From: Candidatus Aenigmatarchaeota archaeon
GTDB taxonomy: Archaea > Aenigmatarchaeota > Aenigmatarchaeia > QMZP01
DNA length: 64,000 nucleotides
Assembly: GCA_043824495.1 (NCBI GenBank)
Contig: JBDRSV010000024.1
Location: 107,816 to 171,815 of the forward strand
Direction of reading: 5' to 3'
The notes below the pieces were generated by a model. It searched no databases. It saw nothing but the letters and a program-made list of their open reading frames with translations, and was not told the origin of the DNA. Shown here piece after piece: positions 995 to 42,270 of this stretch (its first letter is position 1; each line of letters starts with the position of its first letter). A program made the position numbers and the translations under genes.

Positions 995-2869
995 TTACTT
1001 CAGAAGCGTCATCTTTTTGCTTTCCGTCAGGCTGGCCGTTTGCAACCGATAGAAGTACATACCGGACGCGACGGCCTTACCGTAGCGGTCGGTTCCGTCC
1101 CAGCTAACCTGATGTGTTCCTTCGGGCTGGGACCCGTTGACGAGAGTGGCAACGTTGCGGCCGAGGATATCAAAGACCTCTAGCTTTACGTCTCCTCCCT
1201 GAGTCAACTGATAGGAAATCACGGTTCCGGCGTTGAAGGGGTTCGGGTAGTTCTGGTTCAAGCTGAATGATGTAGGAACGGCTCCTGTTGTCTTGTACGC
1301 GATGTTCAGCGTACCTAATGGAATCCACCCAGCCGGAACTGTCCGGCTGTTGTTGATCTCGTCAGCTATCGTTTTGGCCAACTCGTGATCGCCGAATGGA
1401 TCGTCGATCAAGTTGTCGCAGTATGTTACCGCCTGTGACACAGTCGCGCCGTCATCGCTAATCACAGCGGTTTGTGCCAGTTTGCCGCTAGCGACATTGA
1501 GTAGCAAAGCCATGAGTTGCTGTCTGGCTCGATCAATCATGTCAACGCTGCCCTTGAGGTTCAGCAACGTCTTCGCGACTTCGAGCTTGTCTTCACAAAG
1601 ATCCGACACGGGTGGATCGTACACGACGACCTCGTTCACTGCGTTCGAGTTGAAGTGGCCCGCGATGAGGTCGAGATAGCTACACAGAGTTGAAGCATCG
1701 ATTTGCGCGCGGCCATTCCCACCAGTAGCGACGCCGACGTTGTGTTTCCAGAAGCCGATTGTTCGTTGTTCTCCAGCGTCTGACGGGCATCCCAATTCAA
1801 AGTCGATTTGGGCTGTGCCTTCACAATCGAGATCGACGGACTGTTCGCTCGGAAATGCCGTATACCCGAGGGGGCCAACAAATGATACCATGTAGCTGGC
1901 CTCACCCGGGAGGTTCTCGAAATCGTAGTAACCGGCTTCATCAGTCACAGCCGATTCTACAAGTACACCGGTGGCATCGAAGACATCAATCGTGATACCA
2001 AGAACAGAGCAGTCAGCACTCAGTGTGCCCTCAATTGCGGCGAAGCATTCTTCCTCTCCACCTCCGCATGCACACGTTCCATCTTCCACCTCAATGGCGG
2101 TGATGGTGTTGTCGTAGGCGTCCTTTGACCAGACGACGGTCAACGGCGCGAAGTTGATGACGTCGCATTCGAGATCCTCATCCCGACCACCGATCGTCGC
2201 GAAGTCACTGAGATACACGCCCGTTGTCTTGTCAATGCGAACGATGTTGCCCAGACCATCGCGCCCGATGTAAAGGGTGTTCCCCGTCCCAACAATAACA
2301 CCACTTATTCGATCCAGTGTATTGCCGGCCGCGTCGGTCGGATACAACGTTCCCAGATAGGCTCCCGAGCCCGCATCGAAGTGGTCAATGCCCGTTGATA
2401 CATCATCGGAAACCCAGACACTGTTATCCGTCGCATCAAAGCCAATGCCGTCGATGAAACAGAAGCCCGGTGTTACCACAGAAAACTGGAAAGTGGCTAC
2501 GCCGGTGGTGGGATCGATGAGATACACGTTCGCCGGACATTCGTTGTCACTGCCTCCCCAGATCATGTTGCGCGTATTGTCCCATGCAATAGCGCCGATC
2601 GAAACTGGTGTGCCATCCGGTTTGAAAATGGAAACGAAGCCGAGATCGGTGCCGAATTTGTCTATCGAGTAGAGAGTTGGGTCGAAAGAGTTGGTGTAGA
2701 AAATCACACCATCACATCCAACTGCAACACCGATACCGACACCAGACGAGCTTGGAACAGGAACTGTGACGTTCGTGATGACATCACCGGGAGCTGCCAT
2801 TGACGTAGCGGTGATAGCGGTGAAGAGGCAGAACACAACAAGCGCAGTGAAAGCTGTGAGACGCTTCAT
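995..2869 (-). CDS. Secreted protein: beta-propeller-like region, SdrD-B/CarboxypepD-reg-like Ig domain, C-terminal FlgD-Ig/T9SS-type sorting domain
   Basis: Signal peptide; C-terminus FSLNQNYPNPFNAGTVISYQL...EVFDILGRNVATLV...WDGTD...VASGMYFYRL...KKMTLLK. Confidence 0.85.
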   Translation of the reverse strand: MKRLTAFTALVVFCLFTAITATSMAAPGDVITNVTVPVPSSSGVGIGVAVGCDGVIFYTNSFDPTLYSIDKFGTDLGFVSIFKPDGTPVSIGAIAWDNTRNMIWGGSDNECPANVYLIDPTTGVATFQFSVVTPGFCFIDGIGFDATDNSVWVSDDVSTGIDHFDAGSGAYLGTLYPTDAAGNTLDRISGVIVGTGNTLYIGRDGLGNIVRIDKTTGVYLSDFATIGGRDEDLECDVINFAPLTVVWSKDAYDNTITAIEVEDGTCACGGGEEECFAAIEGTLSADCSVLGITIDVFDATGVLVESAVTDEAGYYDFENLPGEASYMVSFVGPLGYTAFPSEQSVDLDCEGTAQIDFELGCPSDAGEQRTIGFWKHNVGVATGGNGRAQIDASTLCSYLDLIAGHFNSNAVNEVVVYDPPVSDLCEDKLEVAKTLLNLKGSVDMIDRARQQLMALLLNVASGKLAQTAVISDDGATVSQAVTYCDNLIDDPFGDHELAKTIADEINNSRTVPAGWIPLGTLNIAYKTTGAVPTSFSLNQNYPNPFNAGTVISYQLTQGGDVKLEVFDILGRNVATLVNGSQPEGTHQVSWDGTDRYGKAVASGMYFYRLQTASLTESKKMTLLK

Positions 2870-3415
2870 GGATTTTTATTCCTTAGGTTGTGAGGGAAAT
2901 ATGACCCTCCGGGTTTGTTTTTCGATTAGTTTCTGATTGTTTGTCGTTTACCACGTTTCCAAGTTAAGGTCCGCGAATCGCTATTTTCATTGGCATCCTC
3001 TCTTTGGGTTAATGTTGTCCGCACAAATTGCGGGATTAAAAGAAGGAAAGACACAAAAGATAGAGTATGTCTTATGTAGACTGAGAGTAAAATCATTCGA
3101 AGAATAAAGCTAATACTATTAAAACAAACATGCATGTTTGATGTGTTTCTTTTCATGTTTTTTGTGTTAGCCAATGTACCGTTTCTATGGTTAATTGGAT
3201 TGATTGAGTTGCAATCAATACAAATTTAAATGATGTTCGAATGAGTAGCATGATTTAAATTGTATACAAAAATTGACGTTGATTCATCGTCGTTTTTTTG
3301 TGTTTTGGTATTTTTTTTGATTCTAGCTTGTCGCTTTTGTCAAGTCTTTAACTCAAGTATATAGCTTACAGGTATTTAAATGTTTTCTAACACATTTTTT
3401 TTAATTTTCTTTCTT

Positions 3416-3437
3416 TTATCCCTTTAAATAGACATAT
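3416..3437 (+). repeat. Island-edge motif, copy B (variant)
   Basis: TTATCCCTTTAAATAGACATAT, followed by a bulged hairpin at 3443-3506. Confidence 0.85.
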
Positions 3438-4408
3438 AAAAAGGCAAACGGGCGAAGATTTGGAGCCAAACTCTTCTTGATGTCTCACCTCCGCCCGTTA
3501 AATGCCGTTGTCCGGCCTATCAATTTACCCGCCGGTTAGGTGAGCACATGTGCTCGTGTCCCAGAGGCGCATGTTTTCATGCCCTCCTTTGCCGGGTTCT
3601 TACGCGAACGTGCTGCTTGACCGAGATAATGTAGCTGCCAGATTCCCCACAACCTTGTTATTGGTGGAACCGCGACAGCGGTCGGTCCAGTCCGTATGCA
3701 TCGTAGCCTCACTTGGTGAAGGACTGCGAATCAAGAGACGGGGATTCAGAAGAATCCCCGTCTCACGAGTTGACGGTTGGTACGAGATATATCAAAGGAA
3801 GTCTTTATGCCATTGGGTGCATTCCGAAACCTTTAGCCTCGTCCGTCTCCGAGGGATCCTATCAAAGGTTTCATAAAGGAAATTTCATGGACCTCGTTAC
3901 GATAGGATCGGAGTGGCGTAAAGCCACGGCCAGAACCTCGAGGTCCCCCAGGATAAGATCACCGTTTGAATATGAGTCAGCGGTGAACGTAAGGGTGCTG
4001 GCGATTCTTCTTCGCATTCAAACCCTCCAGGGAACACTTCGTAATTTGTGTTGTCAGCGGCTGTTTACGAATCGGCGGTGATCGTTTCCACCACGGTACA
4101 TGTCGGCGTGGTGACAAACGATGAAGAAGCGACTTCAAAACGCGCGCGGCCATTGCTCGGCGGCGGCGAATGAGCCCAGGCATTGACGGCGGTCGCGGCG
4201 GTATTCATCCAGGAAGCGACCACTGGTGACCCGCGAAGGGTCGGTAATCGGTTCATAGAGCAAGCTCCATTTCTTCCGATAGGAAAATTCCAATCCACTT
4301 TACAAACTCTCGCCTAAACAGAAAGTATTGTCACATAACTTTCCGTCGCAAAAGAGAATGTGAAGAGGAAACAATTTCGTACACCTCGTCAAGAGATCGT
4401 CTCCATTT

Positions 4409-4774
4409 TCACCCTACATGGGCTAGGCGAGAGGATAGACCAGTTGCTGATAGAGATGTAGAGGGAACCGTTTTCATCCGAAGATCTCTCCCGTCCCTCA
4501 GGGAGTAAGTTGCTCGTCCACCAGGTTCCCATACCAAGGGAGCTGGCAACTCTGCCATTCTCTCTATCCGACTCTCTGTTGTCATCGCCACTACGGCAAC
4601 AACTCTTAGCCTATCCGGCGTAGGATTATGAGAGTGTAGAGCGAATTCCTCGTTCCATGTTTGTTCTGTATCGCTGCCTGTTATGATATCCAATCCTGAA
4701 AACGGGATTGGGTCAGCGGTATAAACAATACAGGAACCATATATGAGGTAGCAGAGTGTCATGATTCCCAGCAT
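4409..4774 (-). CDS. Hypothetical protein with a hydrophobic N-terminus (possibly truncated)
   Basis: AAGGAG lies upstream of the ATG; 121-aa ORF. Confidence 0.5.
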   Translation of the reverse strand: MLGIMTLCYLIYGSCIVYTADPIPFSGLDIITGSDTEQTWNEEFALHSHNPTPDRLRVVAVVAMTTESRIERMAELPAPLVWEPGGRATYSLRDGRDLRMKTVPSTSLSATGLSSRLAHVG

Positions 4775-4885
4775 GACAACTCCTTACAAGGGCACATGGT
4801 TATATGGTAAATGCTCTCTCCGTCAACAAATCGTGCCCTCTAAGACATGTTTAGGAGAGAAAGGCGACAACTCATGAAGTGTTCT

Positions 4886-5044
4886 TCAGGTGGACCCGTC
4901 ATCACTGTTATTGCGTTGACGGCCTTCTCCTTGACCCGGACTTAGACGTGTGGCTTTCGGTGTTTTCGCGGCGCGTTTCTGCTGTTTTGGACTACGCTTC
5001 TTGTTGCTCGGAAGCCCGTCTCGGGCACCACCGTGACACGTCAT
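4886..5044 (-). CDS. Possible small basic protein (52 aa)
   Basis: Manual translation MTCHGGARDGLPSNKKRSPKQQKRAAKTPK...; GAGG upstream. Confidence 0.25.
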   Translation of the reverse strand: MTCHGGARDGLPSNKKRSPKQQKRAAKTPKATRLSPGQGEGRQRNNSDDGST

Positions 5045-5674
5045 GAAAGACCTCGTTTGTGAGGAGTTCAGTTCAAGCTTGTGCTGGAACTGTTTGGAAC
5101 GAGGAATTGTTACTCTTTACGGCGAGCGATTGTGTGTCATCGTAACTCCTTGACAATGGTTTCCACAAGCTCCAAAATAAAAAAGAGCTGTTGTTTTCAA
5201 ATTCAGTTGGGAATCTCCTAGCCCGCCCCCAGAACTGACTAGAGGAGATCCCCAACTTTTGTACAGCGCACCCCGTGCATTGTTTTCAGGGTGGAGGGGC
5301 CCGGCGGTCAACTGAGCCCCTCACTGGACGAATCGGTCACAGATAACATGTTACGCATTACCGACTCGAAATCTATGCCACGGCAGTAGATGGAAGTGGT
5401 CGCATCTACCGCCGGGCTTCACGACGTTGTGCATTTTGTCGCCTTCAGCCTTACACAACGCCGTTATTTCCCCACCCACAGGGAATTTAATATCGCGGGG
5501 CCTCACTCAGGAGACCCCGCTTCCGTTGGGTTTACTACCGAATTGTTCGGTAGCGTTCTTCCACGACAGACATACGCACATGCGCACGTCTTCATTTCTT
5601 TGAGGACCTACTCATCTCCGATTTGAGTAGGTCCTCGGCTCCCCACAACCCCCCGATCAGCACCGGGAATTTTT

Positions 5675-6900
5675 TTGAGGGGAAATCTGAGCAGATATCT
5701 CAGACTCCCCTCCCGTCAGGTCTACCGACCAGCACTTCCGGTTGGACGCCGGAAATTCTTTATTAGAAGGGGTTTCCCCTCTCCAAGAAACCCCTTCCTC
5801 TTCGGCGTAGCGCGTCTCACGCGCTTTAGTGCATCGATCCCCACCGATCAGGTAAAACCCTTGGATGGTTCTCTCCCCGAACCCCCACTGAAATATTTTG
5901 GAACCCCTCATAGATCCCCGTAATCTCCGAGAGGTTCCGACAGCAGCACCATACAAATGGGACTACCGTGACAATCAAAAATACCGGAATCCACCGCGTC
6001 AGAAGAGGATTCCGGTATTCTACATCGCTGGTTGTGTTGAGAGCTTACCCCTTACTGGTCTTAACGAGTATGTTACGTCGGACTTCCTTTCACCAAATAT
6101 ACGGGTCACTACAGAATACCCGATCGATCCGCTTTGTTGTCTTAATCTCACCAGCGGATAGTGACGCGGTTACAGCCAGCGATTTCGCCTTTATACAACA
6201 GGCGTCTCCAAACCAAAATGGAAATTGGAGTTGTTGCTTCCACACTTCCGGATTTCCCCCTCCGGTAAACTCTAAGGTACTGATAGGTGACCGCTCGTGT
6301 TTCTTGTGTTCGCAATTGCCGATTGCATCAAGCTCTTCGTAGATCTAGATCTGGAAGTAATTAGCAAACGATCACAATAAACAGACAACTGGGAGAAGTC
6401 CATTTCTACCAGTACCTGGATTTTCTAACCCTCGGGAGGTGTGTACAAGCCTAAGCAGAGTTTGTCCTGTTGAATTGGCCCCGAGGGTAAGTGGCCTTCC
6501 GGAAGAGAATTGGTGAGGTCCTGTAACAGAACTCTATCTCATTCCGGGGTAAAGCTCAAGGCACAGCCAGAAGGAGACGTATTACCTTGAGAAGTTGGTC
6601 TCCCGAGTGAAGAAATTCGAGATGTCCCATCGATGAAGGACATCTCTTCTCCACTCGGGCTCATTCGTCAGCCTGGAAGGAGAAGTGCAAGAGTTTTCGC
6701 GCAATTACTCTCTCTCCTCCCGGGAAATTTATGACCTCCTGGTCCGAAACTTGTGCCGCGGTAAACCAGAAGGCGTAACTGCTAGGCTATGTGACGGCCA
6801 CAGCAGTAGGGATCGAATCCAATACACGAAAGACAGCTAAGACTAACTCTGTCTCGTGTGGTTTACGAGTAAAATTCAGAAATCGATAGTCTTCGGCCTC
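5675..6900 (+). pseudogene. Possible decayed gene of unknown family
   Basis: Protein-like stretches in successive + frames (FYIAGCVESLPLTGLNEY..., ETYYLEKLVSRVKKFEM*RTSLL...REIYDLLVRNLC) interrupted by stops and frame changes. Confidence 0.3.
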
Positions 6901-7189
6901 TTCGAGGGAAACTGCTTAAGCGCTTAATTGCAGCGCGTTATGTTTCCTGGTAAGTGACCTGTTCTCTAGGATGTACCGAAGGCTAACTTAGTTAGTCTCG
7001 GGAAATTCGCGTGTGATTGGTAGAAATGAAACATGAAATGTCCTTATATATAAATGTAATTTAATTACTTAAATAGGTTGATGGATAGCTTTAAAAAGGT
7101 ACTATTAAAATTATTTTTTTGTGAAGGGATCGATATACCAAGTGCTTCCAAAAATAAAGAGTAGAAAAAAATAAGAGTGAAAAAAGCAA

Positions 7190-9232
7190 TTAACCAATGA
7201 ATTCAACCTTTTCAAAACTGCCGTTTTCTTCAAATTTGTCTAATGTTGATACGAAAATTATTACTTTTTTCTTGTCTTCTTTACAGATTCTAGCTGCTTG
7301 TTGTATTACCATGTTCTTGATTCTGTCTGAAGCACATATGAAATGATTGCTTTGTTTCAAGTCCTGATAAATTAATTCTCTATCATCTGTGTCTTCAACC
7401 ATTATAGTTAATTCTTTTCCATCGTTCTGTAAATATATTCTGTTACCTTCTTGTTCACTCTTCCATCCGACTTCATTAAAGGTCTGCATGATACCTGTTA
7501 AGTTCAATTCTTTTTTCTGTGTTGAGTTACCAAATTTATTAGTGAAAACTTTCTCTCCTATATTTGTAAGAAAGTAATAACATAATCTATTCTTCTTAAC
7601 TTTAGCATCAGCTGAATCAACTAATCCGTTATAAGTTAAGTTCTCAACCTTTTTCTTGAAAGTTGCTCCTGACATTTTTACATTTGTGTATATCTGAGAT
7701 GTGTAAGCAGCACTACCATTACCAATGGTTTTCATCATAGCCCACTCTTGTTCTCCTAAATCCTCAATTGGAAGAGAGTTTATGAATTCTTCTTCCTTTA
7801 CTGGAGGAGGTGAGTAGCTATCTTCTTTAGCTATTCTGTCTTTCATGTGCTCTCTGATATCATCATCTACAATAGAGTTCTTAACCAGTTTAGCCTTGTC
7901 GAATTTTACAAGGAATGGTTCTGGGAAATTCATAGAGTGTCTCAAAAGCATGAAACCGTGACCTACTGGCAGTCTTCTTAGATACTTACCTTCTTCTCTA
8001 GAATCAAGACCAAGCATGTTTGAAGCGTCTTGAATATCTGAAGTATGTTTTGTATCCAAACCTAGATTCATGTATATATGAGTAGAAGTATTACCAATTG
8101 CTGGATATGAAACTAAAGATGGATGCTGATCTATGTATATCATTCCTAATCCTAATTCTCTAATTTCTCTAAATATTAATTCTACAACGGTTTCTGATCC
8201 TAATTTGGCAGATTTTTCTCTGTTAAGAACATGATGAGCTTCTTCCATCACTATACATCCTATGACTTCTTCTTTTCCGCCTTCTACGAGTAACCAATCT
8301 CTTATCCACTGTAGAATTATTTCTATGATAAAGCTCTTATCATTAACATCAAGAGCATCTAATTCTAGAATTGTTACCTTTCCTTTCTTGAAGAAATCAG
8401 ATGGTTTTATACCTTCTACACAGTCGAATATATGACCTGTGTCTTTGAAGCATAATGACTCTAATGGTCTTTCAGCTGTTGCTAACCAGTTTCTTTCTCT
8501 TGTTGGCAGCTTACCTTCTGCATATTCTGCTAAGTAATCTTTAAGGTCAAACAGTGTTGGATTTTTCTTTTCCTTGAAAACTCCATCTAAAGCTTTCAAG
8601 ATTACGTGTCTTCCACCACCGAGTAACCAGTAAGAATGATCGAATATTGAAGAGAACTCTTTCATCCACTGTGTTTGACTAATTCCTTTAGGACCTTTCA
8701 GTGGATTGAATTTGAAAGGAGCTACGCCTCTTCCGATTGTGTAAATATCTATTTTGTCTTTAATTTTAGTTGATAGTAAATCTTTATAATTTCTCTTAGA
8801 GAAATCAAATATCAAAACAGGAATATCCTTTTCTGCTAATTCTTCAATTAAGTTATATGAAATATTTGTTTTACCATAACCAGATGAACCAAATATTCCT
8901 ATATGTGTAAGTAAGTTTTTCTCTTCTAGCATGATTGGATATAAACCCTTTCTTCCGTATAAAACATCACCTAATCTAATTGTTCCTTTAGCTGCTGCTT
9001 CTTGGCTAGGAGGTTCCATTAGTACTGTATCTCTTAGATCTTCATCAGCAGAAACTGCGGCTTTTATAACATCAAGTAGTTCGAAGATTCTTTGTCTTAC
9101 ATCTTCGTTTCCAACTAAGTAAGCTTTACTTAATCTCAAAGCTTTGTCTTTACCCAAGATTGGAGTAAGCTTCTTAATTTCATCTGCAATTAGTTTTTCT
9201 TGAATATTAATCATTTGTACCACCCAAATCAT
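7190..9232 (-). CDS. HerA/VirB4/FtsK-like ATPase (DUF87-type) with C-terminal winged HTH
   Basis: Walker A GSSGYGKT, Walker B IVMEEAH, REIRELGLGMIYIDQHPS, RRLPVGHG; host-like composition. Confidence 0.85.
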   Translation of the reverse strand: MIWVVQMINIQEKLIADEIKKLTPILGKDKALRLSKAYLVGNEDVRQRIFELLDVIKAAVSADEDLRDTVLMEPPSQEAAAKGTIRLGDVLYGRKGLYPIMLEEKNLLTHIGIFGSSGYGKTNISYNLIEELAEKDIPVLIFDFSKRNYKDLLSTKIKDKIDIYTIGRGVAPFKFNPLKGPKGISQTQWMKEFSSIFDHSYWLLGGGRHVILKALDGVFKEKKNPTLFDLKDYLAEYAEGKLPTRERNWLATAERPLESLCFKDTGHIFDCVEGIKPSDFFKKGKVTILELDALDVNDKSFIIEIILQWIRDWLLVEGGKEEVIGCIVMEEAHHVLNREKSAKLGSETVVELIFREIRELGLGMIYIDQHPSLVSYPAIGNTSTHIYMNLGLDTKHTSDIQDASNMLGLDSREEGKYLRRLPVGHGFMLLRHSMNFPEPFLVKFDKAKLVKNSIVDDDIREHMKDRIAKEDSYSPPPVKEEEFINSLPIEDLGEQEWAMMKTIGNGSAAYTSQIYTNVKMSGATFKKKVENLTYNGLVDSADAKVKKNRLCYYFLTNIGEKVFTNKFGNSTQKKELNLTGIMQTFNEVGWKSEQEGNRIYLQNDGKELTIMVEDTDDRELIYQDLKQSNHFICASDRIKNMVIQQAARICKEDKKKVIIFVSTLDKFEENGSFEKVEFIG

Positions 9233-9755
9233 TAAAGATCTTTAAGATCTTATTTTCTGTTTGTAGTTGTTCCAGGAGCTCTCTTAGCTCTGTTTTTAAT
9301 TCTAATCCATCTCTCCAAAAAAGAATATTTTCTTGTCTTTTTTCTTTTCTGAGAATAGAAACATCAAGTTTGAAATTTCTCTTTTCATCGATGTCTGTGA
9401 TATGATTCATCATATCGTCTTTTTCTTCGATGTCTTCTTCAATTTCTTTTAAGAATGTTTTGTGGAGAACTTCTCTTTCTTTCATAGTGTTTTCAATTTC
9501 ACTAACTCTTATTTGCAAGAATTCTACTTTATCGAATAAGCTTCCAATAACTAGAGGATCATCTCTTTTTAGAGCAGTGAGTTTACTTTCTTCAAATCTT
9601 GGCATTGATCTTTTCTTAATAATTTGAACTTCTCTAACTTCGGGTTCATCTAGATCAATCTCATCATGTCTAATTAAAGACTCACGTCTTCTCTTTTTTG
9701 TAATGTCTTCATACTCGTCAAGAGTTTTATAATAGGGTTCCATTAATCTGTCCAT
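9207..9755 (-). CDS. Charged coiled-coil hypothetical protein, coupled to the ATPase
   Basis: 182-aa E/K-rich ORF overlapping the ATPase start. Confidence 0.75.
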   Translation of the reverse strand: MDRLMEPYYKTLDEYEDITKKRRRESLIRHDEIDLDEPEVREVQIIKKRSMPRFEESKLTALKRDDPLVIGSLFDKVEFLQIRVSEIENTMKEREVLHKTFLKEIEEDIEEKDDMMNHITDIDEKRNFKLDVSILRKEKRQENILFWRDGLELKTELRELLEQLQTENKILKIFNDLGGTND

Positions 9756-10617
9756 AATAATTACCTCGAGTGACCATTTGTCACTATCTGATAGTTAAAA
9801 TATGTATAAAGGGTTTATAAAGCTTTCGGTTAGCTTGCAGTGTGCTGTTTTTGAGCGTAAAAATCGTGTACGAAAGACAATTTTCTTGGGTTTCCATGAC
9901 TTTTGTGCCAACGAAAGACATATTCTGTCTTTAGTAAGAGAGTTAATAAAGATTTCTGTCTCGCGCCTTATAAAGGATCCGAATTGGATATTTTATATAG
10001 TAATTAATTACTATTGTAGAGATCTTTATTTACTTAAGTCTTTACATAAATAATTCTCAAATACTTTTTGTCTTTGCTAAAGTTTAATGCAGATTTTCCT
10101 CGAAACTTTTGTGGAAATTCTTGAAATCAAATGTCTTCTAGTTTTGCTAGAGCTTTTGAAGACATGGAAACTCTCATAAAACCCCAACCGAAAAGTATTT
10201 AAACCCTTTGACTATAATTTCACTATAGATTAGTGACAACAAATTAAGAAATGTCTGAGTTATGTGTGGTGTCAAATCCTACATAACTATCTTTACAATC
10301 TACGCAACTTTGAATAAAAAGAATTTCGGGTTAAACTCGCAATTCTAAACTCAGAGAAATTGAGTGCACAGGAATTTAGGCGCGGCCTAAAATCCCCATA
10401 AGAAATCCAAAAAAATGACACGCTTTGTGTCAAAAAATGTGATTTGAGGGGGTTTGATTTCCTTAGCTCTGAGTATCTACTTTTCGAAAACCACGAAGAC
10501 TCGCGTAACAATTCTAAGCAATAAATATAGTGAAATTCCAGACTTCTGTAGACTTTCGCTGTCTGACATAGAAATTAACAAGTTGACAATAAACGGAAAC
10601 TTCTGGGAGGGATTGTC

Positions 10618-10980
10618 ATGAGAAATATCATGAGCTGTGTTTTCCTGCTGCTCACATTATTCCTGGTGAGTTGTGCGAAAAGTGGTCCGGAGCTGGGGAG
10701 TGATATCCGGATCAGTGGAACAATCGTCGACATGAGCGAAGGAGGTAGTAGGGATTTCCTGATCCAGTCCGGAGGAAAACTCTACCATTTCGGTACTCGA
10801 CTGCAATTTAAATGGAGTAAACTTCGTGCGGGACATTACGTCACCGTGGATGGGAAGTTTGGGGGACCGTGCGAGGAAGCCTCAATGTTCAGACGCTACA
10901 TGTACGACGACGAAGGGAACTTCATCAAGTCCCTCGAGGTCTATGACATCATCCATGTTTCGAACGTGGAGAGGCAGTGA
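10618..10980 (+). CDS. Putative lipoprotein
   Basis: Lipobox FLVSC after a hydrophobic stretch; GGAGG SD. Confidence 0.7.
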   Translation: MRNIMSCVFLLLTLFLVSCAKSGPELGSDIRISGTIVDMSEGGSRDFLIQSGGKLYHFGTRLQFKWSKLRAGHYVTVDGKFGGPCEEASMFRRYMYDDEGNFIKSLEVYDIIHVSNVERQ

Positions 10981-11109
10981 TCCCACTGAGTTCATCCAAT
11001 TCATCGGGTGGACCCAGATGAGATTATTGTCTAAAGGCTAAATCAGCAGGCCTTGAATTGTTGGTAGGGATCATTGGAAGATTCCCAAAAACATGGCAAG
11101 GAGGGCAAC

Positions 11110-11262
11110 ATGTCGCAGGGAACCAAAAACACCAAAGACACAGGAACAAGAGCGTTTCTGGTTATCGACGGAACTACAGGAGACCTCATTCCTGTGAAAG
11201 CATCGTCTGGACGAAAAGCTGAGCAAATCGCCGGCAGCGTAACCAGACAATCCCGCAAATAA
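11110..11262 (+). CDS. Small hypothetical protein
   Basis: GGAGGGCAACATG start (MSQGTKNTK...); the ORF track starts at 11074. Confidence 0.45.
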   Translation: MSQGTKNTKDTGTRAFLVIDGTTGDLIPVKASSGRKAEQIAGSVTRQSRK

Positions 11263-11342
11263 AATTACCCACTGTGAATTCCCCAGGAGTATCATCCGCC
11301 CGGAAGATACTCTGTTCTCCCCCATACTACCATAGGCCACAC

Positions 11343-11480
11343 GGAGCTCATCAGGTTTTCACTTGGTGGGCTCCAGTGAGATCTTTGGTGGTTAACGTTC
11401 CATAACCGTTTCATTCACAACCTTTTGCCGACCTTGTCTGCATTGCAGCTCAAGGAAGTGTGTAAAGGAAGGAGAGTGTC
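11343..11480 (+). repeat. Intergenic module type 1, copy 1 (GAGCTCA...GGTGGGCTC hairpin + CCATAACC...CTTTTGYCGACC hairpin + AAAGGAAGGAGA)
   Basis: Aligns with 15853-15997. Confidence 0.8.
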
Positions 11481-12182
11481 ATGTTATTGCATGTAACAGT
11501 AATAAGCCGCGGAGACAGAACAACGATCGATGTTCCCAGAACAGAATTCAACTGGGATACCAATCAATGTCGCGTAGTTGAAGGTGCAGAGGAAGCTGAA
11601 AGAAATCTCGGGGTGGCGGAGAATCTCGAAATCCGTAAACCCGCGGCTTACCAGGGACCCTATTTATACTGTATTGTAGAGGTGGGGTTCGAGGAAATTT
11701 GTTTTCCCCCGACTTTCCTCAAGTGGATCGAGAATGTTCCCGAGGATGAGAAAAGAGCCATCCTTATCGTTCCCACCAAAACCATCCGAAAGGCCGATGA
11801 TAGTCACTATATGGGATCTATAGATCGTTATAGGTATTATCCTCATGGTGAAGTCTTCCTGATTGGTCGCAGAATCATCGTGAGGAACATCTACCTATCA
11901 CCTGATAACATCAAGATGGTGGTGGATAAAATCCTTGCCCGACTGAGTGACGGCCTGTTCCTCCGGTTGGCCTTTGAGTTTCTCCAGGCTACGCCGATCA
12001 GTGACAATCCTACGGTGACTGGAGAACATATCACCATGTTGGATAATCTCTTCACGGGGACGCGTTCCCTTCGGAGAGGAGATTCAACTCGTCGCGAACG
12101 GTTCAATCATGTTCGGGCCGTGATTGGACATATGGCCAAACACGGGATAGTTCTGTCTGGCAAGATCGAACCCGTGAAGTAA
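11481..12182 (+). CDS. Hypothetical protein
   Basis: 233-aa ORF with strong SD AAGGAG. Confidence 0.75.
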   Translation: MLLHVTVISRGDRTTIDVPRTEFNWDTNQCRVVEGAEEAERNLGVAENLEIRKPAAYQGPYLYCIVEVGFEEICFPPTFLKWIENVPEDEKRAILIVPTKTIRKADDSHYMGSIDRYRYYPHGEVFLIGRRIIVRNIYLSPDNIKMVVDKILARLSDGLFLRLAFEFLQATPISDNPTVTGEHITMLDNLFTGTRSLRRGDSTRRERFNHVRAVIGHMAKHGIVLSGKIEPVK

Positions 12183-12223
12183 TCAACGGCTTGGAAACCA
12201 AGTCAAATCAACGACAATGAAAG

Positions 12224-12556
12224 TTGAGGTGTAATATGAATAGGCGAATACAGAGTATGATTGTGATGACTGCGACTTTGATAGCTGTTGCAGTCTTTCT
12301 CCAAGTCTCACAGCTTCACGCGGCACATTTGATGGCAACCGCAATTGCAATTGCGGTTGTGGTGATGATCGTTGTTAACATGGGAAGAGTTCCCAACACT
12401 CGGCAGAAGTTTCGGAACTTCTCTGTCGGAGCCGTTTTCGGGAGCATCTTCCTGTGGGAGTTGTTCAAGGTTACGTTCTTGAATCACCCTGCGGCTCTTT
12501 GGAGTGTGGTTGTACTCGGAGCTGCGGCAGTCTCATTTCTGACGTTCCGCCGGTAG
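12224..12556 (+). CDS. Small 4-TM membrane protein
   Basis: Hydrophobic segments; the likely start is the ATG at 12236. Confidence 0.7.
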   Translation: MRCNMNRRIQSMIVMTATLIAVAVFLQVSQLHAAHLMATAIAIAVVVMIVVNMGRVPNTRQKFRNFSVGAVFGSIFLWELFKVTFLNHPAALWSVVVLGAAAVSFLTFRR

Positions 12557-12570
12557 TACTGAAGTTCACC

Positions 12571-12618
12571 GGGGATCCCGATCAATCTGGTTGGGATCCC
12601 CTCAACCTGACAATAAAC
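12571..12618 (+). repeat. Intergenic module type 2, copy 1 (GGGGATCC hairpin + CAAC(C/T)TGACAAT(A/T)AAC)
   Basis: Aligns with 13482-13529. Confidence 0.85.
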
Positions 12619-12627
12619 TGTTGTTAA

Positions 12628-13473
12628 ATGTTCCATTACACCAAGGAGGGCGCAATGCGTCACCAACGTTTCATCACCACAGTACTGGCACTCATGTTCT
12701 TGACTGTGCCGGCAATGTTCAGCAGTGCGGTTCTGGCCGATCCGATTTCATCCGGAGACGGTCAAATGTATGTGGTCCAACAGGGAGATTGGTTGACGCG
12801 GCCGATCATCCCGACACTCTACTCGGATGTGTTGAAGCCAGGCGACTTGAAGAGTGCTCTCTGGATCGCTGACATCTTCGATACACTCAACATTAACATC
12901 ACCCACCGCGACAAAATTCGGGCGTATGATACCATCATGGCGCCGTCATTCGCGGCGTTGAAGAAGTACAAACATCTCGCACCCGCCGACGTGGTCATCA
13001 ACCTGTTCGCCACGTATGATATCGCGTCCATGGAACTTGTGGACGCCGAGTTTGTAAGAAAGCGCATCGAGGACTTTGAGGGTACTTACTGGTACAAAAA
13101 TCGAGCCGCGTGGGCCCGAATTTTCGGAGTCGGTAATGGCACGTATGTCTGCGGTGACACCGTGATGCCGTTCTCATGGTTCATGAGCTGCAATACGGAC
13201 GGTAATACGGGAATGACTATCTCCATCTCCATGGACGAAGGAGATCTCACCGCAGTTCGCAAGGTTCCAGGTACACGTAACGGATTCTGGGGAGCCAGTC
13301 GTGACAATAAGTTCACATACGTGGGCTTCGGCAACGACTGGATCGATCGTTGCGACTGGAATGACGAGACCGAGAGCTGGGACATTCCACCAGTTCTGAA
13401 TGAGATCGTCGGAACTCTCAACAACTTTCCATTCGTCCAGTATATGACCGTCGTCGCGTACGAACTGGAATAG
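12628..13473 (+). CDS. Secreted protein with a LysM-like start; paralog of 13535-14899
   Basis: Signal peptide LALMFLTVPAM...LAD; YVVQQGDWL; shared NTDGN and C-terminal pattern; likely start 12655. Confidence 0.75.
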   Translation: MFHYTKEGAMRHQRFITTVLALMFLTVPAMFSSAVLADPISSGDGQMYVVQQGDWLTRPIIPTLYSDVLKPGDLKSALWIADIFDTLNINITHRDKIRAYDTIMAPSFAALKKYKHLAPADVVINLFATYDIASMELVDAEFVRKRIEDFEGTYWYKNRAAWARIFGVGNGTYVCGDTVMPFSWFMSCNTDGNTGMTISISMDEGDLTAVRKVPGTRNGFWGASRDNKFTYVGFGNDWIDRCDWNDETESWDIPPVLNEIVGTLNNFPFVQYMTVVAYELE

Positions 13474-13481
13474 TTGTTACA

Positions 13482-13529
13482 GGGGATCCTGACCAATTCG
13501 GTTGGGATCCCTTCAACTTGACAATTAAC
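13482..13529 (+). repeat. Intergenic module type 2, copy 2
   Basis: GGGGATCCTGACC-AATTC-GGTTGGGATCCCT...CAACTTGACAATTAAC. Confidence 0.85.
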
Positions 13530-13534
13530 GTAAC

Positions 13535-14899: not shown

Positions 14900-15184
14900 A
14901 GCCGAACGCCACGAATTACTAATCCGCTCTTCTTCCCAAAGAAGTGTGGCTAGTGTGAAAGGAGTATGGGAAGGTTCCACAGTAGTAGCATCAACGGCAA
15001 AAAGTAAAAGACAAAAAAATGAAGGCCAAACCCGAGGAGGAACTCGAAGTGAAGACGAAACGAAGGTCATGCCAATATCCCATTTCGCCCATGATGGCGA
15101 CTCATATTCTCATAGTCTGACCGGCCGCCGGCGACGCCACGGGCCTCTTATATAGTTAGCGGGGCCCATCGCCAATGCAGTCAA

Positions 15185-15269
15185 AATCCCGGGTAGGCTT
15201 CAACCCCTACCCGGGGTTCCAAATGAGCTCATCTAGTTCAGATATTTTCTAGGTGGGCCCATTTGGAAT
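15185..15269 (+). repeat. Double-hairpin module (AATCCCGGG stem + TTCCAAATGAG...TTTGGAA stem), copy 1
   Basis: Aligns with 15817-15905. Confidence 0.85.
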
Positions 15270-15332
15270 TGTAAATGATTGTTGACTGTTCAATGAGCGT
15301 TCCGAAAGGAACATTGCAAGGAGATTTTTATC

Positions 15333-15797
15333 ATGACACAGCAGATGACATCAGTACCAGATGGTTGGGGCGGAGCAGGTGGCGACAGTCTCGGCACAGA
15401 TGCACTCGAGCTTCTGAAGAAAATGGGATTCGACAATGCAATGGGACAAGCGTTGCTCGGCAGCTTTAATCCACAGGGTTTCGTGGATGCGCTTCTCACG
15501 TTCCGACCGTTCCCGGTTGGCGGAGTCTCTCCCGAAGCTCGGAACGAGAGCAGAGAAGCTCAGTGGATTTATCTCACATGGATCTTCACCAGTCGGCAGA
15601 GAGCCTCCTTTCCCGTCGAAGGGGTGAGTGGCCTTGCTGACTTCGTGGATATTGTCCGGAAAGCACAGAGCGATGCGGACGCGAACGAACATGCAGTTCG
15701 AATCTTGTCCAGGTTTGGGTGTGTCGATCTCCTCGTTGGTGAAGGTCGGACCTTCTTGCACACGAAAGCCATCGATTTCGCTAATTCCCAAACGTAA
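15333..15797 (+). CDS. Hypothetical protein
   Basis: 154-aa ORF with an AGGAG SD, flanked by two copies of the double-hairpin module. Confidence 0.7.
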   Translation: MTQQMTSVPDGWGGAGGDSLGTDALELLKKMGFDNAMGQALLGSFNPQGFVDALLTFRPFPVGGVSPEARNESREAQWIYLTWIFTSRQRASFPVEGVSGLADFVDIVRKAQSDADANEHAVRILSRFGCVDLLVGEGRTFLHTKAIDFANSQT

Positions 15798-15816
15798 GTC
15801 CGCGACATCACCAACC

Positions 15817-17989: not shown

Positions 17990-18008
17990 GCGTGTAGTTA
18001 TCATTCAC

Positions 18009-18038
18009 ACCCCGCCTGGATTCAATTCCAGGCGGGGT
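18009..18038 (+). terminator. Perfect GC hairpin (terminator-like)
   Basis: ACCCCGCCTGGA-TTCAAT-TCCAGGCGGGGT. Confidence 0.7.
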
Positions 18039-30274: not shown

Positions 30275-32800
30275 TTATTTTATGATATGAATTGCAACTG
30301 ATTTTTCATATCCTTTTATGAAATCTTCTACCATGTCTCTTGCTGTAGTGTCTGAATGTTGTATTGGTGGATGCTTCATGAAATAAGCTGATGGACCTTC
30401 TAAGTAGCCTCCGATACCTCTATCTTTTGCTATTTTTGCACAGCGAATACCATCTATTACTACACCAGCAGAATTTGGAGAATCTTCTACAGAAAGTCTG
30501 AGTTCTAAATTAAGAGGAACATCTCCGAATTTTCTTCCTTCCATTCTAATGAAACAAATCTTGTTATCTTTCTGCCATGGAACATAATCACTTGGTCCAA
30601 TATGAATATTTTCTGGTTCTAGTGGTATTGGTAATTGAGACTGAACAGCTTCTGTCTTGCTGATTTTTTTGCTCTTGAGTCTTGATCTCTCAAGCATGTT
30701 TAGGAAATCTGTGTTATGAACTAATATGTTTGAACAAATAAACCGTTCAAATGGTTTTGTGCTTATGTCATAAACATACACATCTTTTAATTTTATTTTT
30801 CTAATGTTTTTTATCTTAAGGAAGCGAGTATCGCCTGTACATAATTGTTTAATTTTTTCTCTTTCAAACTCACTTTTAACTTTATCCAATTGAGAAAGAA
30901 CTATATGAGTTCTAATTGATCCGTGTTTGTACCACGTTGTTGATTTTATTTTCCATTTTTTCAAAAGTTTTATATTTGGTATTCGATGTGTTCCATAACG
31001 TTTTAATTTATTATTAGTATTGAGCATTGCCTTTTTCTTGTAATCTTGTAAAAATCCTACTTTATTTATGAACAATTCCATATCAATTTTTGATGATATT
31101 AATCCATGCCAAGCATACCCTAGTTTGCTGTTATATGCAGTTCTAGTGCTACTATATCTTTCCTTGAAAATTGTTGAATTTATTCCTAATCTCAAAAACA
31201 ATGTCTGTATATCATTCAAAAGGTCACGAGAAACAGATGTCCATCTTATCTGTTTTCCTGTAACACCACCATCACCACTTAAATAACCTCTTAAAACTAA
31301 TGATATTTGTCTATCTGATAAATTAAAAATCCATTCTGGTATCCGTTTTGTATAAGCATTTCCCCCTAAACCAATAGCTAACTTAAATATTTTAGACAAT
31401 ATTTTTGAATGAATCCTTACACTAATACCGTCATTTCTAACGCTATATCCAATATTAAATCTATCTGTTAAACTATCTATAAGGTACATACACTCAGGTT
31501 CAGCACCGCATGCAATTTCTATATTAGATGAACCTTCTCTATCATAATTACCATCTGCAATCCATAAACCAACCAACTGTAAAAGATCATCTGTAATTGG
31601 GAATTTAACAGGAATTTTTATTTCAGGATGACCACGGACATTTATATGACCGTCTGATACACCATCAACTAATAATTTATTACTATATGGACTTAGATCT
31701 ATACTTTCAATTTCTTCTGATTTAGCATGTGGTAACACTCTAGGAACAGCAATATACGTTTCATTTCCTTTTAGTATTTTTACAGGGATTTCATTTAATA
31801 TACCGTCATCGCTTAATGTAAAGACATTATGATCCCCTGTGATTTTTATTGTCCTACCTTCTTCGGTAGTTATTTCATAAATAGGTTCAGATACCTTATG
31901 TCGTATTAGTGCATTTATATCTGATAGGACAACGTTATAATTATCATTTATAGTAAAACATCGCATATTTTCATTAATTTCTTTCATAATTACAATGTCT
32001 TTTCCATCAGATCTTTTCTTACCATAAAGCTCCAAATAAGAGTCTATCAAATCTCCAATTTTAACCCGCTTTAATTGATTGTTTATAACTACAGGAACCT
32101 CCTGATCTCCTGTTACACTGTTCCCCCCAGTATTCAATTGATATGTCCTATCAATCTTTATTCCTCTATCAGAGAATAACTTTGTTAAAACTCTATGTGT
32201 AATTGTTGCACCTAATTGACTCTTAATATCATCACCAATAATAGGAATTCCTTTTTCCTTGAACTTATCACCCCATTCAGGATTTGATGCAATGAAAACA
32301 GGCATACAGTTAATGAATCCAACACCTGCATCTAAACAAGCTTGTGCATAGAACTTAGTTGCTTCTTCACTTCCAACAGGCATGTAATTAATTAGCACAT
32401 CAGCCTGACTATCCTTCAACACTTGAACAACATCCACATTTTTTTTCCCTGATTTTTTAAATCTATTATCTTCAGGATAATTATTCATATGATCTGCTAC
32501 ACCATCTAACACAGGTCCCATCTGAACTTCCACTCCAATGTGAGGAACATCCTTATAAAATATAGTAGTGTTGTTAGGCTTTGCGAATATTGCTTCCGAC
32601 AAATCTTTATCTACCTTTCTCTCATCAATATCAAAAGCAGCTACTGGTTTAATATCAGATATTTTATATTCACCTAGAATATTATGCATTAGACCTGATA
32701 CTGGTTTACTAGAATCTACATCTTTGTAATAGAATAATCCCTGAACAAGACTAGAACAACAATTACCAACTCCAGCAAATGCAACCTTTATTTCTGTCAT
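30275..32800 (-). CDS. ino1: Inositol-3-phosphate synthase containing an intein
   Basis: [16 protein letters not shown]; [15 protein letters not shown]; LNTGGN/TDFLNM split by the insertion; DSPNSAG. Confidence 0.92.
30713..32119 (-). mobile_element. 469-aa intein with a LAGLIDADG homing endonuclease
   Basis: Starts SVTGDQ and ends NILVHN before Thr; LVGLWIADG and LRGYLSGDG motifs; the extein is 372 aa. Confidence 0.92.
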
Positions 32801-40191: not shown

Positions 40192-40207
40192 TTTTTTATA
40201 ACCTTCT

Positions 40208-40228
40208 ATATCCCTTTAAATAGACAAT
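40208..40228 (+). repeat. Island-edge motif, copy D
   Basis: ATATCCCTTTAAATAGACAAT; bulged hairpin at 40232-40272. Confidence 0.9.
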
Positions 40229-40303
40229 ATAAAGGGGAAAGTGTGATTGGTGGTCACACTTTTTCTCCCCTTGTAGCACCCGGAGAAGCTGCTCGCGTTG
40301 CAG

Positions 40304-40768
40304 TTAATCGTCGAGGTCGAGATCCTGAATGGGACCGTCTGCGGGATCGATCGCCTTGTCGGTACATGTGAACTCATTGCCGTGACCCTCACCGAAGTTG
40401 GCTCGGGCCGTGATCTGGAACGTGCCGTCTGTTGACGCCGCGGGGACAATTGTGGTAGGCGAAGTAACCGCGAAGAACATTGTGTCCTTGGACCCACTGG
40501 CAGGAGCAGGTTTGAACTCGATCGTTGTGTCGCTGTCGCCATAGTCGAAGCGGGCAGCGGGAGCCAATGAGCGAGTTAAACTGCTACTGCGAAAGGCTTC
40601 AATGCCTCCGGACAAACCGAGGTCGATAGCCTTGTCCCTGGCGATCTTCTCGATTGTTGTGCTTCTTACGTCTACTTTTACATCATTCAGAACTGTGTCC
40701 CCGAACTTCAGGTTGATTTTAATGCTGTCGGCCACGATACCCCTCCGTTTCTGCGTGATCAATGTCAC
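40304..40768 (-). CDS. Hypothetical protein (Ig-like, acidic)
   Basis: 154-aa ORF. Confidence 0.6.
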   Translation of the reverse strand: MTLITQKRRGIVADSIKINLKFGDTVLNDVKVDVRSTTIEKIARDKAIDLGLSGGIEAFRSSSLTRSLAPAARFDYGDSDTTIEFKPAPASGSKDTMFFAVTSPTTIVPAASTDGTFQITARANFGEGHGNEFTCTDKAIDPADGPIQDLDLDD

Positions 40769-40776
40769 GTCTGTGA

Positions 40777-41322
40777 TTAGTCCTTCTCAGCCTTCTGAAG
40801 TTTCAGACAAATGGTCTCACCGTCAGTTGCGTGGTCGTAGTCAAATGTAGTCGCAAATTTGGCGCTCCCGATCTTGATTCGAGCGTGAATCTGACACTTC
40901 TTGGGAATACTCGGGAGAGTTATCTCCCCACGAATGATCGTAGAGCCGCCTTCAGTGTCCTCATCATCTATCTTGAAGTAGACGATGGTCCCATTCGGAG
41001 TTGCGATACAGTCATCGCCGTGGCATACTTCGGCTTTGACGGTGACTGAAGCACGAACAAAGTCGAGATCGAAATCGGTGTTCCCATCAGCCGTGTCATA
41101 ATCCAGACGTGCTTCGTACAACTCGCCGTCGATTGTTACGAATGCTTCAAGCGATCCAGCCGCGAGGACGCCCATTAAGACGATGATACCGTTTTCTTTC
41201 ACGGTGGCACGATTTTCTTCGCTTGCGTCGCCTGCGTCATTACCAAATAATACTGAGATGCCTTTTGGTATTAGCTCAGTATCTTCGTAATAGGCGGTCA
41301 GTTGAAGTGTCGTTTTATCCAT
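40777..41322 (-). CDS. Hypothetical beta-rich acidic protein with two internal repeats
   Basis: Repeated pattern (ARLDYDTADG / TTFDYDHATDG); GGAGG SD. Confidence 0.7.
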   Translation of the reverse strand: MDKTTLQLTAYYEDTELIPKGISVLFGNDAGDASEENRATVKENGIIVLMGVLAAGSLEAFVTIDGELYEARLDYDTADGNTDFDLDFVRASVTVKAEVCHGDDCIATPNGTIVYFKIDDEDTEGGSTIIRGEITLPSIPKKCQIHARIKIGSAKFATTFDYDHATDGETICLKLQKAEKD

Positions 41323-41367
41323 TTATCCTTTGCCCTCCTTGTATGGTTTGCCTGTTCCATATAGGCG

Positions 41368-42270
41368 TTATAAACTGACTGTCACAAGAATGTGGTGTGA
41401 CTTGTCCCCATATTCACTTTGGCGCATTGGCAAGAGCATTACTCTACCAATCTTGCCTCCTATATAGTACCAGGAGGATTTAACACCGAACTCGTATCCG
41501 CCTCCGAGAAGAAGGAGGTATTTCCCATGCTGCCAGGCAAACGCCTTGTCAGCACCGATTCCAACATTTCCGGATTTCGTATCACCGAAGGTCTCAAAGC
41601 CCAGGCCGTGGAAGAGGCCAACAGAACTAGAGAAGACCCATTTACCCTTTCTGAAGTTCTGGTAGGCATCGAATCGTGTAGCTTGAATTCTTGCAGATCT
41701 CAGAAAACCGAGAACTGATGATTCTTTGTGATTAAGTTTCCATTCAAACCTGGTTCCAAAGTCCAAGTCCCACATGTTCTGGGATGGTTCGGTGATCCAT
41801 ATGGGACCGCCAGGAATGTACTCGGTTCCGGGAGCAATGAAATTGACAGTTCTCGTTCTCACCCAGATTCTTCGAGCCCCGATAGCAAGTCGAAATTTTC
41901 CAGGAAGAACTCCGAGAGCAAACCGAATATTCGTCGTTGTGGCGATTTTTTGGAAGTCGGTCTGTGCAGGTGGTACGCCTTCTGATTGAGTGTAACCACC
42001 GAGACCCATTAGAGTAAAGCTAGTCTCGGTACCCAGTGGGCGGAGAAGGAACGGGAGCTTGTACGAGGCTCCAGATTCTATTACCCAGAAATCTGTCCGC
42101 GAACCATACATCCCGTCTGTTGGGGTCTTGAGAATGTAGGTGAAGACTGACGAGTTGTCGTAAATTGGTGGTGGTTTGGCATCCACTTTCACCGGAGACA
42201 CTACCACCACAAACAGTGTCACTGCTGCGATGATGTTACGCATCGAGACCCTCGCGATAACTTTATGCAT
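41368..42270 (-). CDS. Secreted protein resembling an outer-membrane beta-barrel
   Basis: Signal peptide; alternating aromatic/Gly strands; C-terminus HILVTVSL. Confidence 0.55.
   Translation of the reverse strand: MHKVIARVSMRNIIAAVTLFVVVVSPVKVDAKPPPIYDNSSVFTYILKTPTDGMYGSRTDFWVIESGASYKLPFLLRPLGTETSFTLMGLGGYTQSEGVPPAQTDFQKIATTTNIRFALGVLPGKFRLAIGARRIWVRTRTVNFIAPGTEYIPGGPIWITEPSQNMWDLDFGTRFEWKLNHKESSVLGFLRSARIQATRFDAYQNFRKGKWVFSSSVGLFHGLGFETFGDTKSGNVGIGADKAFAWQHGKYLLLLGGGYEFGVKSSWYYIGGKIGRVMLLPMRQSEYGDKSHHILVTVSL

Follow-up and report, generated by a model that had tools for sequence, protein, structure and literature searches.

Probable independent foreign insertions ending in a shared hairpin and 27-nt box in the small chromosome of an Aenigmatarchaeota archaeon

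Why should genes with the look of a diderm bacterial envelope stand in the chromosome of an archaeon, and do they form a set? The question is raised by a stretch of 64,000 nucleotides (hereafter the window; contig JBDRSV010000024.1 of assembly GCA_043824495.1, positions 107,816 to 171,815) from a Candidatus Aenigmatarchaeota archaeon. A first-pass annotation, made from the sequence, had described positions 995-42270 of this window as an island of diderm envelope genes, recently acquired and possibly from more than one donor. The present analysis proposes that the window probably holds a series of independent foreign insertions into a small DPANN chromosome, four in that range and a fifth further right, which are heterogeneous in cargo and are terminated by a common box. 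The host genome comprises 1.01 Mb in 29 contigs at ~35% GC and is 80% complete, with an estimated contamination of 0.2%; this completeness applies to every search of the genome described below.

Results

Foreign blocks in an archaeal backbone

The backbone of the window is archaeal, with genes for L7Ae, a YGR210/YchF-type GTPase, diphthine synthase and a CDP-alcohol phosphatidyltransferase, and it also encodes an intein-bearing inositol-1-phosphate synthase. Its GC content of 30-35% (~33%) is interrupted across the 64 kb by five blocks of ~50% GC, namely island A (~927-2940), island B (3440-7000), island C (10600-19520), island D (40234-42350) and island E (60800-61740), the last of which lies outside the range 995-42270. 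Within that range, backbone occupies 7.0-10.5 kb (3.5 kb) and 19.5-40.2 kb (20 kb) between islands. The proposal of foreign DNA thus stands, but not that of a single island, as four islands are present with ordinary chromosome between them.

In island genes the GC content at third codon positions (GC3) runs from 0.49 to 0.66, while most backbone genes lie at 0.19-0.35. The observed/expected ratio of CpG reaches 1.0-1.2 in the islands but stays at 0.45-0.52 in the backbone, and dinucleotide distances of 128-214 separate island from backbone, compared with 33-60 within island C. Translation and transcription signals differ in the same way across the genome: Shine-Dalgarno (SD)-like motifs lie upstream of 31% of high-GC3 open reading frames (ORFs) and 10% of the others (p 3e-6), whereas TATA-like boxes precede 6% and 30%, respectively (p 2e-6). 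The contrast noticed at the outset, in which SD sites mark island genes and TATA-like boxes host genes, is therefore borne out by significant genome-wide counts. By GC3, CpG and SD signals, the blocks are supported as foreign and little ameliorated. They combine a composition unlike that of the host with the absence of island D from the corresponding site of a same-genus genome, the features by which horizontally acquired islands are recognized.

A hairpin and a 27-nt box close each cassette

Every island has a hairpin abutting one 27-nt box on the 3' side of its genes (5/5 cassettes in the window), and each cassette carries its cargo in one orientation. Read in the direction of the cargo, the box has the consensus TTTrTATTGTCTAwTTAAAGGGATATA. 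The genome holds ~20 copies, each at a GC step and with the island invariably on the same side; across genomes, the box occurs in 10 of the 18 searched from the family but in 1 of 12 from outside it, and a reversed control gave 0. Cassette A (minus strand) is closed by a box at 899-926, abutted by a terminator-like hairpin with a GGGAGAG..CTCTCCC stem (927-962), and cassette B (minus strand) by a box at 3413-3445 with 5 mismatches to the consensus. Cassette C (plus strand) ends at 19491-19548, with the hairpin at 19491-19519 and the 27-nt box at 19522-19548; the end of cassette D (minus strand, 40207-40270) consists of an exact consensus box (40207-40233) and a hairpin (40234-40270). Cassette E (60823-61764, plus strand) is made up of a gene for 242 aa, a hairpin and a box at 61738-61764. 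A 5' end common to the five cassettes was not found by short-word BLAST.

A degenerate box copy (461-487, plus strand; 6 mismatches) overlaps the start of a gene for a 134-aa Zn-ribbon/helix-turn-helix protein (475-879, plus strand), which has a host-like GC content and no catalytic domain. Over its last ~50 residues, this protein resembles the N-terminal part of IS6-family transposases (NF033587, E 5e-5, profile positions 2-52 of 202); the genome has no other IS6 match, and the score of this one is below the cut-off. No intact IS6 transposase was found in the genome, and the window contains neither an intact IS6 transposase nor an intact integrase.

The insertions in independent data

In an independent assembly, the Logan assembly of run SRR26275509, a 48-kb contig is 100% identical to the window over 334-12869 and so covers the borders of A and B as well as the left border of C; two genes further right, at 20176 and at 27268, also lie on this contig, out to at least 28278. 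A same-genus genome, G001, which NCBI names Candidatus Aenigmatarchaeota, keeps the order diphthine synthase, YchF, VanZ and next gene, with ~250 bp in place of the 2.3-kb island D. Islands A and B and gene 5 of cassette C (C5) were not found in G001, in which the contig syntenic with the sites of A, B and C is a short one. The island proteins are singletons at 90% identity, and no copy of them was found in any other context. The insertions thus appear to be real, and an assembly chimera is unlikely.

Cassette A: a T9SS-type surface protein

The cargo of cassette A is one intact gene (995-2869, minus strand) for a secreted protein of 624 aa, which consists of a signal peptide, an N-terminal beta-rich domain, an SdrD_B/CarboxypepD_reg sandwich, a helical middle domain and a type-A C-terminal domain (CTD) of the kind used by type IX secretion systems (T9SS). 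Pfam assigns FlgD_ig, SdrD_B and Por_Secre_tail, and the CTD (residues 541-620) scores 51.5 bits with TIGR04183 (cut-off 23) and 30.4 with PF18962 (cut-off 27); its initial description as a FlgD-Ig/T9SS-type CTD protein is upheld by these curated cut-offs. The closest full-length relative, at 45% identity, stands in a bacterial context among ruvABC, uvrA and recJ, while the C-terminal 55% of the protein (~350 residues) is 50-62% identical to Zixibacteria proteins. The five named proteins among the best 120 relatives are all from Zixibacteria, a 60%-identical relative adjoins bacterial signalling genes on a Zixibacteria bin contig, and the best 80 loci among species genomes come nearly all from phyla of the Fibrobacteres-Chlorobi-Bacteroidetes (FCB) group, none being archaeal. 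These data support a Zixibacteria-like origin for protein A, which is the only clearly diderm-specific gene of the cargo.

Protein A resembles type-A T9SS cargo of the FCB group (TIGR04183/PF18962) in its full CTD, with the motifs NYPNPF...GMYFYRL...KKMTLLK, and Zixibacteria surface proteins in its modular build of variable passenger, SdrD_B sandwich and CTD. It differs from FCB cargo in that it is encoded in an archaeal chromosome in which neither PorU nor any other T9SS part was found; the PorU sortase model NF033707 matches only the CTD itself (40 bits, cut-off 420). As no T9SS part was found, the CTD could not act as a sorting signal in this host. TIGR04183/Por_Secre_tail nevertheless scores above its cut-off in 15 of 91 host-order genomes, and one genus, g23 (48-55% GC), encodes a 245-aa secreted CTD protein with native GC and conserved synteny. 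The gene order there is PKD protein, CTD protein, KaiC-like ATPase and polyprenyl synthetase (L122 1003-1740, L121 1498-2226). To judge from these sequences, the T9SS-type CTD is resident in related Aenigmatarchaeota that have no T9SS. The starting premise, by which the domain was typical of FCB diderms and archaea have no such system, was thus too strong, given the 15 genomes and the native family in one genus.

Cassette D: a predicted beta-barrel with archaeal kin

In cassette D (minus strand), genes 3 and 2 (40304-41322) encode acidic, beta-rich proteins of 154 aa and 181 aa that belong to no family, and gene 1 (D1, 41368-42270) encodes a secreted protein of 300 aa that is predicted to form a 14-strand beta-barrel. 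An AlphaFold2 model from a four-sequence alignment is an all-beta barrel with long antiparallel strands at a predicted local distance difference test score (pLDDT) of 70.5. It superposes on CymA (VIA-align, Z 20.1, root-mean-square deviation (rmsd) 2.8 Å, 242 residues), OmpG (Z 19.5, 2.9 Å, 223 residues), PorV (Z 17.6, 3.1 Å, 229 residues) and FadL (Z about 17, 3.3 Å, 246 residues). At the level of the fold in this predicted model, the beta-barrel-like character suspected from the sequence is confirmed.

The likeness to 14-stranded outer-membrane barrels (OmpG, CymA, FadL/TodX and PorV) thus extends over 215-246 residues at Z 17-20 and rmsd 2.6-3.4 Å, and D1 shares with them a signal peptide and a mature part that is rich in Gly and aromatics, with no Cys. 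In contrast to these proteins, to which it is 7-12% identical, D1 has no sequence similarity to them and no Pfam family. It also departs from classical outer-membrane proteins in that its C-terminus (...VTVSL) has no aromatic beta-signal, its dyad hydrophobicity is not above that of shuffled sequences (face difference 1.38 against 1.61 +/- 0.25), its relatives are all archaeal, and BamA/Omp85 (PF01103) gave no match in the 80%-complete genome, with positive controls.

The only sequence relatives of D1 are three proteins of Micrarchaeota metagenome-assembled genomes (MAGs), at 39-51% identity; relatives in diderm bacteria were not found. The family occurs in 6 of 251 Micrarchaeota genomes (36-54% identity). 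In two of the Micrarchaeota MAGs the homologue is placed between purP and prs-rpe, in one of the two also beside the PolD small subunit, and has a GC content like that of its surroundings (the family loci are L084 6001-7065, L085 2131-3168 and L086 3004-4068). In a small unrooted tree, the D1 of the window attaches inside the Micrarchaeota diversity. D2 was not found in five Micrarchaeota genomes. For the barrel gene, therefore, the nearest homologues are archaeal, a result that had been named beforehand as one that would refute the proposal. The accompanying premise that archaea have no outer membrane was likewise too strong, as some archaea, including ARMAN (archaeal Richmond Mine acidophilic nanoorganisms), have been reported with both an inner and an outer membrane (PMC4243693, a review). 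A literature search found no paper that links Micrarchaeota, a beta-barrel and an outer membrane.

Cassette C: an orphan operon

Cassette C contains nine or ten co-oriented genes on the plus strand with strong SD sites and repeated leaders, which encode a lipobox lipoprotein, two paralogous secreted proteins, three membrane proteins, two cytoplasmic proteins and an FHA protein. Gene 1 (10618-10980; GGGAGGG upstream) encodes a 120-aa lipoprotein, a singleton cluster, whose signal peptide and lipobox (...LFLVSC, residues 14-19, with LVSC as the lipobox proper) can be read directly and agree with its earlier naming. Lgt (PF01790) has no match in the 80%-complete genome; the control was positive in 10 of 14 genomes. 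Gene 2 (11481-12182, 233 aa) has no family and is cytoplasmic by sequence, gene 3 (12224-12556, 110 aa) has about four transmembrane (TM) segments, and gene 4 (12628-13473, 281 aa) encodes a secreted protein with weak paralogy to gene 5 and to an ORF of another island of the genome, designated C5:128 kb. Gene 5 (13535-14899, 454 aa) encodes a secreted orphan, gene 6 (15333-15797, 154 aa) has no family, and gene 8 (18071-19075, 334 aa) has five or six TM segments and a C-terminal domain.

Gene 7 (15998-17989) encodes a membrane protein of 663 aa (C7) that had been called AMIN/TolB-like, a description confirmed only in part, by a weak PD40-type propeller. Three TM segments at the N-terminus are followed by the C-terminal propeller (~residues 400-660), to which a phmmer match to a PD40 protein (E 1.4e-4), Atlas structure rows to TolB-family propellers and NCBIfam TolB (E 0.048) point; the protein is otherwise an orphan. 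It scores far short of the TolB family (TIGR02800 12.6 bits, cut-off 343), TolB_N was not found in Pfam, and AMIN has no Pfam match at E 0.01, the one hint of AMIN being an Atlas feature row for a cluster with 24% AMIN-like members. A single-sequence AlphaFold2 model of residues 231-663 was unusable (pLDDT 35) and was not used. A word search of 5.8 billion proteins gave no relatives of C7, and phmmer over 1.84 billion gave the one weak PD40 match.

The last gene carries the FHA domain expected from its annotation (PF00498, 65 bits, cut-off 20.7, E 7e-18), but not the start proposed at 19116, since that ATG belongs to another frame, which stops at 19196. The FHA frame (19139-19462) opens at 19139, and its first ATG, GTG or TTG is the GTG at 19214, which lies inside the domain and would cut its first strand. 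The gene is thus probably damaged at its 5' end, with the usable start lost. Apart from FHA, no protein of cassette C has a family in Pfam, NCBIfam or PHROGs; the proteins of the island have no relatives in viral contigs or phages, and C5 has none among metagenome contigs, among plasmids or in 300 genomes from the phylum. SD-bearing leaders are repeated at 11446-11475 and 15963-15992, and a GGGATCC-type hairpin ahead of genes at 12568-12618 and 13479-13529; these look like regulatory repeats that may have been carried along from the donor.

Cassette B: hairpins without genes

Cassette B (3440-7000, minus strand) is 3.5 kb long at 50% GC and has no ORFs; its first hairpin (3447-3499) abuts the box. 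No ORF exceeds 142 codons, and this holds under any single-stop recoding as well, which yields no gene-sized frames and thereby sets aside another genetic code. Decayed genes were rejected, as there is no period-3 GC signal beyond that of shuffles, and so was ribosomal or other known RNA, with no Rfam match at the gathering score or at E 1 and none useful at E 10. The folding energy is far below that of shuffled sequences (mean minimum free energy z -2.2 and -2.6, with single windows to -8), while the coding islands give +0.2/-0.6 (A) and -1.2 (C). At least 12 near-perfect stems of 10-15 bp are present, some of them nested. No relatives of B were found elsewhere in the host genome, among 91 order-level genomes or, by hairpin pattern, in JGI (Joint Genome Institute) metagenomes. 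It is possible that B is a large structured RNA of foreign origin.

Cassette E and cargo elsewhere in the genome

By features (0.93; 192-198 of 256 shared) as well as by structure, the 242-aa product of cassette E falls nearest to Atlas clusters of hypothetical proteins from Minisyncoccota (candidate phyla radiation (CPR)/Patescibacteria), in keeping with the Patescibacteria-like look first ascribed to it, although this is a lead only. The single gene of E is flanked by a near-identical direct repeat of 26-27 nt (60757-60782 and 61584-61610) inside the GC-rich cargo. Large cargo proteins in other islands of the genome include a thiolase, an enoyl-CoA hydratase-like protein, an acyl-CoA dehydrogenase, an EamA transporter, M20 peptidases and an M32 carboxypeptidase. 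Of the 14 island ORFs in the window, 8 encode a signal peptide or TM segments. Across the genome, island ORFs show no significant excess of TM segments (46% against 34%, p 0.05) or of N-terminal hydrophobic segments (37% against 28%, p 0.17).

Neighbouring genes

Between cassettes B and C, a two-gene module (7190-9755) encodes a HerA/VirB4-like ATPase and a 182-aa coiled-coil partner; the best NCBIfam row of the ATPase is the DNA-import ATPase CedD, at 61 bits and far under the cut-off, and the module is kept in five related genomes. Directly to the right of cassette C, a Cas4-like PD-(D/E)XK nuclease is encoded (20176-20829; GC3 0.48, intermediate) with no box of its own, near genes for a type IIG-like restriction-methylase (22570-25296) and an IS5-family transposase (27268-28278). 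The inositol-1-phosphate synthase gene (30275-32800) is split by an intein with a LAGLIDADG domain. Further along, a 1520-aa protein of host composition (52803-57365) carries an SLT lytic transglycosylase domain, here in an archaeon.

Discussion

The present data are consistent with a model in which the small chromosome of this archaeon has repeatedly received foreign cassettes. Their cargo is heterogeneous: a Zixibacteria-type surface protein in A, a Micrarchaeota-resident family in D, an orphan operon in C, ORF-less DNA in B and a CPR-like gene in E. The transfers would be recent, to judge from the unameliorated GC3, CpG and SD signals and from the missing island D in the same-genus genome. 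Both the recency and the plurality of donors that had been proposed at the start gain in support, the former from the little-ameliorated composition and the empty D site in G001, the latter from the Zixibacteria-like A and the CPR clusters nearest to E. The box resembles the end of an IS6-type element, of which the protein encoded at 475-879 may be a remnant, retaining the N-terminal DNA-binding part of the transposase, and capture would follow the box and a transcript-like shape of the DNA rather than gene function. As PorU, Lgt and BamA were not found by searches whose controls were positive, neither the T9SS CTD nor the lipobox nor the assembly of the barrel could work as in the donor. Exported cargo may still use the universal Sec signal peptide, and the proteins could be inert passengers on the way to decay, as the lost start of FHA and the lack of ORFs in B may indicate, or could be reused as plain secreted or surface proteins.

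Several points weigh against this model. In a genome that is 80% complete, the absence of PorU, Lgt, BamA and an IS6 transposase is not proven. The closest known donors are at 45-62% identity, so that recency is argued from composition and from a single empty site. A GC content of ~50% is common to all islands, and their dinucleotide signatures do not separate them; an attempt to tell donors apart by these signatures was abandoned, as the pieces are short and between-island distances (69-116, B2 aside) are barely above those within C. A single intermediate vehicle for all islands is thus possible. Further, with 8 of the 14 island ORFs of the window exported or membrane-bound, selection for surface functions, rather than function-blind capture, may have shaped the cargo.

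Other explanations can be weighed against the same evidence. An assembly chimera or contamination, in which the assembly fused GC-rich reads from co-occurring organisms with an archaeal contig, would account for the sharpness of the GC steps in a MAG of 29 contigs. It is very improbable in view of about 20 borders that obey a common box and orientation rule, a box that is specific to the lineage, identical junctions from an independent assembler, the lack of identical island proteins in other contexts and the contamination estimate of 0.2%. The coherent import of diderm outer-envelope genes that was first envisaged (T9SS substrate, lipoprotein, TolB-like protein and outer-membrane barrel) draws on the Zixibacteria relatives of the T9SS CTD, the lipobox, the hints of a PD40 propeller, the OmpG/CymA/PorV-like barrel prediction and the frequency of signal peptides or TM segments in the window (8/14 island ORFs). 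It is quite unlikely all the same, as the barrel has kin only in Micrarchaeota and in a housekeeping context, PD40 propellers are not diderm-specific and neither TolB_N nor AMIN was found, lipoboxes occur in monoderm bacteria too, FHA is a cytoplasmic domain, the proteins searched contain no relatives of island C, other islands hold metabolic enzymes, and the genome-wide enrichment is not significant. Island B has no genes, the T9SS gene is the only diderm-specific member, and the idea of a coherent envelope set is abandoned.

Transfer mainly within the archaea, from higher-GC DPANN donors such as ~50% GC Aenigmatarchaeota or Micrarchaeota, would make the bacterial look of the cargo second-hand. 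Micrarchaeota with 43-52% GC carry the D1 family as native genes, Por_Secre_tail is present above its cut-off in 15 of the 91 host-order genomes, with a syntenic native family in g23, and the ~50% GC common to all islands would also fit such donors. Yet the relatives of protein A are Zixibacteria wherever they are named, and stand in bacterial contexts, searches of 300 genomes of the phylum for C5 and of five Micrarchaeota genomes for D2 found nothing, and E is nearest to CPR clusters, all of which leaves this route unlikely. Independent insertions of mixed origin thus remain the preferred reading, to which two linked conjectures may be tentatively added, with their truth rather doubtful at present. 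D1 may be a genuine DPANN membrane barrel, resident in Micrarchaeota, of which the ARMAN members reportedly have two membranes, and passed on as a cassette, and the box-terminated cassettes may serve this symbiont-type archaeon as a platform for sampling surface and secreted proteins, and in B what would be a large structured RNA, from neighbouring organisms of both domains. If the former were true, archaea would have in D1 their first native family of outer-membrane-type barrels. Both this family and cassette B, structured but without ORFs, are leads in themselves.

A warning also follows for annotation, in that the biology of a donor is not to be read into cargo such as a T9SS domain, a lipobox or a porin-like barrel without the machinery that these need; the sorting domain and the barrel family, moreover, both have archaeal residents.

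Among known mobile systems, the cassettes are most readily compared with IS6/IS26 elements and integron gene cassettes, with which they share a short conserved repeat that marks one end of the cargo unit and the ability of units to stand in tandem; as for IS6/IS26, a protein with an IS6-like N-terminal DNA-binding part is encoded beside a box copy. They differ in having one box per unit and no inverted pairs, and in a box that forms one piece with a hairpin at the operon's 3' end. Gene transfer into DPANN archaea between domains and between phyla is known (PMC8204110; PMC8407114 for Aenigmarchaeota), and many lineage-specific DPANN proteins are membrane-bound or extracellular (PMC8204110; PMC8407114). 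The transfers inferred in those studies are mainly of single genes, old and diverged, with ~42% identity to Firmicutes in one case (PMC8407114). The window resembles them in that bacterial-type and foreign archaeal genes lie inside a DPANN genome, but differs in that the imports form compositionally unameliorated blocks with a common border architecture. Several apparently fresh imports, whose sources span at least three phyla and both domains, would thus lie within one 64-kb stretch behind the same border, which makes the mechanism of import and the fate of the imported genes directly testable.

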